Shown piece after piece: positions 18,083 to 18,350 of a stretch of 64,000 nucleotides of DNA. Every line of letters starts with the position of its first letter. Position 1 is the first letter of the stretch. The translations under genes were made by a program, and so were the position numbers. Source of the DNA: Bacilli bacterium (lineage in GTDB: Bacteria > Bacillota_I > Bacilli_A > RF39 > UBA660); the NCBI GenBank assembly GCA_045545595.1, contig JAZQBG010000045.1, positions 594 to 64,593 of the forward strand, given 5' to 3'. The notes below the pieces were generated by a model that saw only the letters and a list, made by a program, of their open reading frames with translations, was not told where the DNA came from and searched no databases.

Positions 18083-18111
18083 TTGATTATAGAACATTTG
18101 TTTGTTATAAT
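18083..18111 (+). promoter_or_regulatory. sigma-A-type promoter of small-peptide locus 1
   Basis: TTGATT -35 at 18083-18088, 17-nt spacer, extended -10 TGTTATAAT at 18103-18111. Homologous to the promoter at 42101-42129. Confidence 0.45.
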
Positions 18112-18174
18112 ATATCTTGGAACATTTAATAAGTTGGGTGGAGCCAAACTTCTTGACAGAAGGGAGGCGAGAAT

Positions 18175-18258
18175 ATGAACAAGAAGGATTTTTTAATTCT
18201 ATCTTTAGTAATTATTATCTTCCTTTTACTATTCTTACTATTTATAGTATTAATATAA
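18175..18258 (+). CDS. 27-aa hydrophobic peptide (type I toxin-like small membrane protein)
   Basis: GGGAGG SD 8 nt upstream of ATG. Sequence MNKKDFLILSLVIIIFLLLFLLFIVLI. Not in ORF track (too short). Confidence 0.4.
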   Translation: MNKKDFLILSLVIIIFLLLFLLFIVLI

Positions 18259-18261
18259 AAG

Positions 18262-18350
18262 AAATCCACCTAACTCAGCAATGATTTAGGTGGAATCGAA
18301 TTTATTCGGCAACACTCAACATGCGACATTAAGTGTTCCTTTTTTATTTT
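18262..18350 (+). terminator. stem-loop plus rho-independent terminator of small-peptide locus 1
   Basis: 8-bp hairpin ccacctaa/ttaggtgg at 18266-18293. Second hairpin aacact...agtgtt followed by CCTTTTTT at about 18318-18350. Confidence 0.45.

Follow-up and report, generated by a model that had tools for sequence, protein, structure and literature searches.

The question raised by this locus is whether a reading frame of only 27 codons in an intergenic interval of a Bacilli genome is a gene and, if so, whether it forms part of a toxin-antitoxin system of type I. The stretch analyzed here, hereafter called the window, comprises 64,000 nucleotides (nt) of contig JAZQBG010000045.1. A preliminary description, made from the letters alone, had read positions 18083–18350 as a hok/fst/txpA-type toxin gene composed of a promoter, a leader that folds back on the 3' part of the transcript, a hydrophobic peptide and a terminator. 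Our analysis indicates that the locus is almost certainly a real and conserved module of two genes, in which the gene encoding the peptide faces a convergent gene for an antisense RNA. A type I function, with the peptide as toxin and the antisense RNA as antitoxin, is its probable role as judged from sequence comparison. All the features first listed lie inside 18083–18350, but the unit reaches 18405 so as to include the antisense promoter (Table 1). This promoter, a 12-bp pairing between the 5' and 3' ends of the mRNA, the 37-nt direct repeats flanking the unit and its status as a family were all new relative to the preliminary description.

Because the peptide is too short for protein searches, we scanned metagenome contigs at the nucleotide level for ATGAAYAARAARGAYTTYYTNRTNYTN and obtained at least 120 matching stretches. 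The search for homologous peptides, proposed at the outset, was thereby productive. At least ~75 loci contained an open reading frame (ORF) of exactly 27 codons, in all cases starting with MNKKDFL and in most ending with a hydrophobic residue or K, and preceded by the Shine-Dalgarno (SD) sequence GAAGGGAGGCGA or a close variant. Fifty-four distinct full units were 56–96% identical to the unit in the window, and the conserved block was bounded by the −35 elements of the two promoters, the sense one at 18083 and the antisense one at 18403, with conservation collapsing outside these limits. A window-wide screen for intergenic, SD-preceded and strongly hydrophobic small ORFs returned only the ORF at 18175–18258 and one encoding 62 residues at 3028–3216. 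These comparisons answer the simplest objection, namely that an AT-rich intergenic region will contain promoter-, SD- and hairpin-like motifs by chance. Promoter-like matches were indeed as frequent as in shuffled sequence (10 sites versus 10.1 expected), so that promoter motifs by themselves prove nothing. The only two sites scoring 10/12 with TG were exactly the two promoters conserved across the family; in the sense promoter, TTG was retained in 46–51 and the TATAAT positions in 45–52 of the 54 distinct units. The mRNA fold and the comparative evidence place the features of the unit above chance, and identity at this level across dozens of unrelated contigs, accompanied by covariation, leaves the chance explanation with practically no weight.

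The 46 distinct versions of the ORF contained no insertions or deletions (indels), whereas the untranslated regions (UTRs) were rich in them. Mean entropy at the first, second and third codon positions (codons 10–27 of these ORFs) was 0.78, 0.31 and 0.87, respectively, which is the pattern expected of NTN codons in a hydrophobic helix. Diverged paralogs recovered with nhmmer also contained SD-preceded hydrophobic ORFs of 25–30 residues, e.g., MRKKDILISVLLFIITLLIVSVMILIIKK and MTKREKALYVIISLLFILVFVLLFK. The fixed length, the entropy pattern and the ORFs of the paralogs taken together establish that the 27-residue peptide is encoded by a real gene, as had been proposed. Against this background we considered whether the locus might specify RNA only, either as two convergent small RNAs or as a structured mobile RNA/DNA element with an untranslated ORF. 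The very strong conservation of RNA structure on both strands, described below, would fit such an element, and T-rich sequence readily yields hydrophobic frames; yet a frame held at 27 codons amid indel-rich UTRs, with three-base periodicity in its variation, strongly conserved SD and ATG spacing, and paralogs keeping an ORF of quite different sequence, makes this explanation very improbable. At three loci (L095, L105, and L129) the leader was replaced and the SD read GGTACCAGGCGA instead of GAAGGGAGGCGA, the ORF being intact; these copies may represent toxin genes silenced at translation.

Searches of databases with the peptide or the unit did not connect the family to any known one. Pfam gave zero matches to the peptide at E ≤ 1, and NCBIfam returned nothing relevant, HokA reaching 12.4 bits against a cut-off of 89. 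PADLOC and PHROGs yielded no useful match (one PHROG of unknown function appeared at E = 1.4), and a literature search for the peptide sequence found no match. Rfam, searched at E ≤ 10 over 17500–18500, showed no match inside the unit. Its sole antitoxin-family match, AgrB (RF02891), was discarded; it lies outside the unit, at 17894–17978, and its 17.4 bits fall far short of the gathering score of 40. BLAST of the unit against phages and plasmids produced no meaningful match, and scans of viral contigs for SD plus MNKKDF and for the hairpin recovered unrelated proteins and hairpins only. Since the ORF has 27 codons, gene callers miss the family, which appears abundant in herbivore-gut Bacilli and merits inclusion in annotation pipelines.

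The sense transcript begins with the sigma-A-type promoter and extended −10 that the preliminary description had recognized, a sigma-70-type promoter with TATAAT at 18106–11 and TG at 18103–04. Transcription is predicted to start near G18119, ~7 nt past the −10, and with this start the leader measures ~56 nt rather than the 64 nt first given. The core of the SD, GGGAGG, occupies 18162–67 as reported, with the ATG 7 nt further on at 18175. A hairpin and then a terminator follow the ORF, also as reported, and the terminator stem (18308–39) runs into TTTTTTATTTTAT. Two leader segments have complementary partners in the 3' UTR. L1 (GGAACATTTAAT) is complementary over 12 bp to ATTAAGTGTTCC at 18328–39, the 3' half of the terminator stem, and L2 (AGTTGGGTGGA) is complementary to TCCACCTAACT at 18265–75 at 10 of 11 positions. 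The latter corresponds to the fold-back between the leader and ccacctaa that had been put forward; its complementarity and covariation hold up, but the main fold-back is that of L1. The DNA in addition contains direct repeats with opposite reading directions, TTGGGTGGA (18134–42) and TTAGGTGGA (18286–94), and a further direct repeat pair formed by 18119–30 and 18308–20.

Folding of the full transcript, which had been suggested as a check, gave −65.4 kcal/mol for the predicted mRNA (18118–18352) compared to −39.7 ± 4.1 kcal/mol for shuffled sequences (z = −6.2), and none of 200 shuffles folded as well. Covariation was tested in an alignment of 59 distinct mRNA regions, and every helix of the model contained pairs that had changed on both sides (Table 1). 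When the 3' partners were slid by 1–3 columns as a control, pairing fell to 32–48%, as opposed to 86–97% for the real helices. None of 500 column shuffles reached the observed pairing or covariation score (17–24 pairs changed on both sides). The two partners of L2, at 18265–75 and 18313–20, were indistinguishable by covariation. The 3' UTR is thus predicted to have two conserved and mutually exclusive states, one with two local hairpins and one paired to the 5' leader, of which the long-range state is favored by ~12 kcal/mol in the sequence of the window. A switch in which the freed leader would open the SD was considered and rejected, as the SD helix is present in both conformers. For the same reason we do not claim the long-range pairing as a block to translation. 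A more cautious reading is that this helix would protect the 5' end of the mRNA, by analogy with the role of the upstream helix in Fst RNA I (PMC7472228).

Convergent to this gene lies the antisense promoter, whose motif TTGnnn-(16–18)-TGnTAnnnT was found in 46 of the 54 distinct units, 45 of these 46 with a 17-nt spacer; the same strict motif occurred in 24 of the 54 sense promoters. The antisense RNA is predicted to start near 18368 and to run through the mRNA terminator and the first 3' hairpin. The latter was assigned as its intrinsic terminator because TTTCTTTTA comes next on the minus strand. The two transcripts would overlap with perfect complementarity over ~94 nt, comprising the 3' UTR and the stop codon. 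The two strands were next compared by means of the G·U pairs; a G·U pair reads as a C·A mismatch on the opposite strand and therefore reveals the strand on which a helix was selected. The 5'-end helix, the L2 helix and the anti-SD helix were all better paired when read on the plus strand, whereas the terminator stem was better paired on the minus strand (Table 1). This asymmetry indicates that both strands specify functional RNAs. In the alignment of the antisense RNA, stem-loop (SL) 2 was 98.3% paired and the terminator SL4 97.1%. SL1 (18351–66) was recovered in all but three of the 46 relatives (43/46), with stems that differed in sequence (AUGAAG/CUUCAU, GCAAG/CUUGC, and AUGAGG/CCUCAU) and a mean energy of −4.95 kcal/mol as opposed to −0.53 for shuffles; it is located past the T-run of the mRNA and hence belongs to the antisense transcript only. 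SL3 was present in 37 of the 46 relatives when checked sequence by sequence, the alignment columns being gappy in this region. Covariation thus provides an unusually complete and testable two-strand structure prediction.

Table 1. Coordinates of the predicted features of the unit, its flanking repeats and the second copy. Percentages are alignment cells paired; "changed" denotes pairs altered on both sides.
Feature	Position	Strand	Evidence or remark
Whole unit	18083–18405		Sense promoter through convergent antisense promoter
Sense promoter, TTGATT (18083–88), 17-nt spacer, TGtTATAAT (18103–11)	18083–18111	+	Extended −10; 10/12 plus TG
5' leader, segments L1 = GGAACATTTAAT (18119–30) and L2 = AGTTGGGTGGA (18132–42)	18119–18142	+	Both complementary to 3' UTR
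SD-sequestering helix, GCC-AAA-CTTC (18143–52) / GAAG-GGA-GGC (18159–68)	18143–18168	+	Covariation, fold
ORF for 27-residue hydrophobic peptide MNKKDFLILSLVIIIFLLLFLLFIVLI	18175–18258, stop codon included	+	At least ~75 loci with same-length ORF
3' hairpin, TCCACCTAACTCA (18265–77) / TGATTTAGGTGGA (18282–94); TCCACCTAA...TTAGGTGGA	18265–18294	both	Putative antisense RNA terminator (SL4) on minus strand
mRNA terminator, GG(C)AACACTCAA ... TTAAGTGTTCC plus T-run	18308–18352	+	Same stem as antisense SL2
5'-end helix (L1)	18119–30 / 18328–39	+	96.6% (minus strand 89.0%); 5 changed
Helix of preliminary description (L2)	18132–42 / 18265–75	+	89.2% (minus strand 80.4%); 6 changed
L2 with alternative partner, plus GCC (18143–45) / GGC (18308–10)	18132–42 / 18313–20	+	92.2%; 5 changed
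Anti-SD helix, GCC/GGC part		+	91.5%; 2/3 changed
Anti-SD helix, CTTC/GAAG part		+	96.5%; 4/4 changed
Anti-SD helix, strand comparison			Plus 94.3%, minus 88.2%
Local hairpin	18265–94	+	86.3%; 11 changed
Terminator stem	18308–39	+	85.8%; 7 changed
Terminator stem, strand comparison			Plus 75.9%, minus 90.2%; 134 G·U cells on minus strand
Antisense promoter, TTGATA (18403–18398), 17 nt, TGaTATATT (18383–18375)	18375–18403	−	10/12 plus TG; family conservation
Predicted antisense RNA (antitoxin candidate), four stem-loops	18256–18368	−	~110 nt (113 nt folded); z = −5.1
Left flanking direct repeat, 37 nt	18034–18070		86% identical to right copy
Right flanking direct repeat, 37 nt	18413–18449		Abuts stop codon of Sel1-repeat ORF
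Second, diverged module copy	42100–42429	+	nhmmer profile of relatives, E = 3e-10

Based on these features, the following mode of action can be envisaged. The plus strand would give rise to an mRNA of ~230 nt for a 27-residue membrane peptide consisting of a single helix, which we infer to be harmful when made in excess. The helix between the anti-SD and the SD, together with pairing of the leader to the 3' UTR, would keep this mRNA quiet and stable; in doing so the extreme 5' end and the adjoining leader segment would compete with the two local 3' hairpins. Minus-strand transcription from the convergent promoter would produce a structured ~110-nt antisense RNA that is complementary to the same 3' UTR and would bind there, by analogy with TxpA/RatA, BsrG/SR4 and Fst/RNA II. 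Binding might lead to cleavage of the duplex by RNase III, a mode of silencing described for such toxins (PMC3531473), or might lock the mRNA in an untranslated complex. The design suggests that the 3' UTR is contested between the antitoxin and the 5' end of the mRNA itself. The module belongs to a dispersed and often tandem family, whose members have entered many intergenic sites and are accompanied there by long duplications of the target.

The genomic distribution of the family was examined next to its structure. The 119 ORFs flanking family units fell into 93 clusters with no conserved partner gene, and the candidate explanation that the peptide is a leader peptide or a subunit of a neighboring operon was rejected on this ground. 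The preliminary description had allowed that a peptide conserved as subunit or leader of a known membrane complex would speak against a toxin, and no such association was found. Tandem or multiple copies occurred at many loci (L102, L116, L130, L141, L151, and others). The unit in the window is enclosed by two 37-nt direct repeats, and other single units likewise had direct repeats specific to their locus, of 37 nt in L109, 37 nt in L098 and 16 nt in L157. The repeat of L109 (8628–8664 and 8985–9021) is a terminator hairpin. The flanking repeats were also considered as att cores of an integrase and dismissed, the sequences being locus-specific and no integrase lying nearby; in the window no recombinase gene was adjacent to the unit.

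The most direct view of insertion came from a pair of related loci. Contig L170, whose VanY protein is 94% identical to that of L098, has an empty site consisting of the 3' end of a NUDIX gene, one 37-nt copy and the 3' end of the vanY gene, with nothing in between. L098 has the same flanks and carries the unit between two 37-nt copies (2366–2402 and 2819–2855), and the similarity between its repeats extends, in decayed form, ~20 nt beyond the 37 nt. The comparison of the empty with the filled site shows that the unit was inserted with duplication of a target of at least 37 bp. At the VanY-proximal site of L098, four further contigs (L171–L174; ~3390–3568, in L174 2944–3122) contained a unit in which an internal deletion had left only the half with the 3' UTR and the antisense gene; such a remnant would be an 'orphan antitoxin.' Similar relics devoid of the toxin were seen in L081, L099, L117, L130, and L151. 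A different kind of sharing was evident in L059, which contains the block 17897–18448 at 92% identity, including a relic rpsI end next to the unit. The rpsI gene of L059 is only 72% identical to that of the window and the outer neighbors on either side are different genes, a pattern consistent with transfer of the block between genomes.

When copies truncated by contig ends were set aside, 14 lacked the 5' part of the toxin gene and retained the antisense promoter, compared to seven whose profile match ended before the antisense promoter, at least three of the latter having another good minus-strand promoter in its place. This asymmetry is only suggestive, because the sample was biased towards loci bearing the ORF. 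The empty and filled sites and the long locus-specific repeats raise the question of how a cassette of ~400 bp inserts without a recombinase, which bears on the long-standing puzzle of the apparently lower mobility of type I compared with type II systems. We entertain, tentatively and as an idea with less in its favor than against it, that a cassette of ~0.35–0.45 kb lacking a transposase spreads both inside the genomes of uncultured gut Bacilli and from one such genome to another, that its insertion duplicates 16–59 bp of target, that the peptide/antisense pair would provide an addiction function, and that the 3' UTR would act as a three-way switch contested by the antitoxin RNA, the 5' leader and the local hairpins of the terminators. 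If true, the module would represent an undescribed kind of mobile type I toxin-antitoxin element, from a class regarded as poorly mobile (PMC5367252). A new type I family would in itself be unsurprising; the points of note are the two-strand covariation and the evidence for insertion without a recombinase.

Whether the module acts as a toxin-antitoxin pair has to be weighed against the alternative of a benign small membrane protein, for instance a modulator of a transporter, a kinase or the envelope, whose level is tuned by a cis-antisense RNA without addiction or toxicity. Many small single-helix proteins are not toxins, this peptide is devoid of the motifs known from Gram-positive toxins (PMC8309996), and the SD is only partly occluded, with a probability of being unpaired of ~0.25–0.55 for the GGA core. 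The lack of a conserved neighbor or partner gene, the multi-copy, tandem and insertion-polymorphic behavior of the family, the elaborate silencing design typical of toxin mRNAs and the more frequent retention of the antisense half in decayed copies all, by contrast, speak against such a role, and we regard it as unlikely.

Several observations nonetheless weigh against the toxin-antitoxin reading itself. In contrast to Fst, BsrG and TxpA, the peptide has neither a Pro/Gly motif nor a charged tail at its C terminus (PMC8309996, PMC7472228). The SD helix is present whether or not the long-range pairing forms, and no translation-activating step was identified. The antisense RNA leaves the SD uncovered, as it does the ORF with the exception of the stop codon, for which reason any block of translation by the antisense RNA can only be inferred; a duplex search for extra complementarity between the antisense RNA and the 5' part of the mRNA was not significant relative to shuffles (p ~0.1–0.3). 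The sense promoter of the copy in the window is as near to consensus as the antisense one. Finally, the loci were fetched by a pattern at the start of the ORF, which biased the sample towards loci bearing it. With these points taken into account, a toxin-antitoxin system of type I, in which both genes are presumed to be transcribed and the peptide would be a membrane-active toxin neutralized by the antisense RNA, remains the interpretation that we consider probable.

Measured against the general make-up of type I systems, the unit contains a gene for a small hydrophobic protein (<60 residues) with its own promoter and SD, an antisense RNA gene, as judged from sequence, that is complementary to the toxin mRNA, and a structured mRNA with a sequestered SD, six of the seven anti-SD pairs having changed on both sides. 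In Gram-positive type I families the antisense RNA is located 3' of the mRNA, with partial overlap (PMC8594479). The RNA design of the unit is closest to that of Fst/RNA II (par) of Enterococcus and other Firmicutes. What defines the par locus is the combination of converging promoters with a bidirectional terminator, oppositely read direct repeats, a 5'-end helix and a stem-loop over the SD (PMC7472228). With it the unit shares the convergent promoters, a 3'-side antisense RNA that leaves the ORF uncovered, a counterpart of the 5'-UH helix that sequesters the mRNA's extreme 5' end and of the 5'-SL over the SD (PMC7472228), and a small membrane peptide charged at its N terminus (MKD... in Fst, MNKKD... 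here). However, two separate terminator hairpins (18308–39 for the mRNA and 18265–94 for the antisense RNA) take the place of the one shared bidirectional terminator of par, the oppositely read DNA direct repeats, a feature that recalls par, lie 20–55 nt upstream of the SD and not over the initiation region, and the PXXXG(C) motif and charged tail of Fst have no equivalent in a peptide without P, G or tail. The unit produced no Fst-family match in Pfam or NCBIfam and no RNA II match in Rfam.

The systems of Bacillus subtilis (TxpA/RatA, BsrG/SR4, BsrE/SR5, and YonT/SR6) resemble the unit in having a cis-antisense RNA of ~100–200 nt that overlaps the 3' end of the mRNA, with likely duplex formation followed by decay through RNase III (PMC3531473, PMC8309996, PMC5848175). 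Their overlaps extend into the ORF and their toxins, of 38–59 residues, possess charged tails and are encoded in prophage regions, whereas in the window the overlap is confined to the 3' UTR and stop codon, the peptide has 27 residues and the cassette is free-standing; no similarity to TxpA, BsrG, BsrE or YonT was detected by sequence or profile in Pfam, NCBIfam and Rfam. The Gram-negative hok/sok and aapA/isoA systems have in common with the unit a fold-back between the 5' and 3' ends of the mRNA and multiple chromosomal copies. Their antisense RNA, however, binds the 5' region and 3' processing activates their mRNA, whereas the antisense RNA of the unit would target the 3' partner of the fold-back. 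The HokA score quoted above and the position of the antisense promoter on the 3' side place the unit outside Hok/Sok. The peptide taken by itself most resembles IbsC (19 residues) and ShoB (26 residues) of Escherichia coli, which are very short, almost purely hydrophobic and without a basic C terminus (PMC8309996), and which occur at repeated, tandem-prone loci. The antisense RNAs are arranged differently from that of the unit, with Sib extending over the entire ibs ORF and OhsC oriented divergently; the peptides lack sequence similarity to the one described here, and E. coli belongs to another phylum. Because only part of what characterizes the closest systems is found in the unit and no database match exists, we view it as a new type I-like family and assign it to no named one. 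The original assignment to the hok/fst/txpA type therefore survives in its structural elements, which comparative data and the convergent antisense promoter support, and not as membership of a named family.

A second copy of the module, located between rpsL and a 166-residue ORF adjoining rpoC, was detected in the window. It has an extended −10 promoter (TTGTGA-17-TGtTATAAT), the SD AAAGGTGGTGA, a 25-residue ORF at 42202–42279 (MTKREIYLYTIIILLFFIVITLLYR), a hairpin and a terminator, and its fold gave z = −8.0. The antisense promoter of this copy is weaker (TTGAAT-17-TGtTAAACT, 8/12 plus TG). The 5' end of the copy reads GGGTACATTTGA and is perfectly complementary to TCAAATGTACCC within the copy's terminator; the long-range helix has therefore been kept although it is built from different sequence. 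A promoter-like site close to consensus, TTGACA-17-TGnTATAGT (11/12), is situated on the minus strand at 42004–42032, directly upstream of rpsL. This is probably the promoter of the rpsL operon, back to back with the sense promoter of the second copy.

The window has a G+C content of 28.5%, and its closest relatives are metagenome-assembled genomes of uncultured Bacilli from rabbit, goat and other guts, with a best CwlD identity of 87%. The first unit is located between rpsI (19191–19610, minus strand) and cwlD (15426–16100, minus strand). In 23 related genomes, fetched via CwlD, the unit was absent from the syntenic locus; the rpsI-cwlD interval showed no similarity to the content of the window, and in some the two genes were adjacent. 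An apparent match to the unit in one of the loci (L002) proved to be low-complexity T-rich similarity. By this comparison the interval is a variable spot. In the window it also contains a collagen-like gene, a Sel1-repeat ORF and an XRE-type regulator bearing a membrane helix. The collagen-like gene (16219–16878, plus strand), which has GPT/GxQ triplets and repeats with a 9-nt period and is of the BclA or exosporium type, adjoins the germination amidase gene cwlD. Remnants of a 263-residue gene (residues 128–154 and 247–264), decayed in this genome, were recognized at 17646–17781; the gene is intact upstream of the XRE gene in L024–L028 and in L025–L027 is the last of an operon with GntR, ABC ATPase and membrane protein genes. 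The Sel1-repeat gene (18448–19029, minus strand) is apparently broken, its 29-residue N-terminal ORF (18940–19029) and a 126-residue ORF (18448–18828) being in different frames. A relic duplicate of the 3' end of rpsI (QFSKR-stop) with its terminator occupies 17897–17962, the real copy being at 19132–19207. The Sel1 ORF and the unit thus lie between the real and the relic rpsI ends, as though the end of rpsI had received an insertion of ~1.2 kb. Elsewhere in the window, a tmRNA gene with the tag peptide GKNNYNFAPSFA was found at 24401–24761 on the minus strand.

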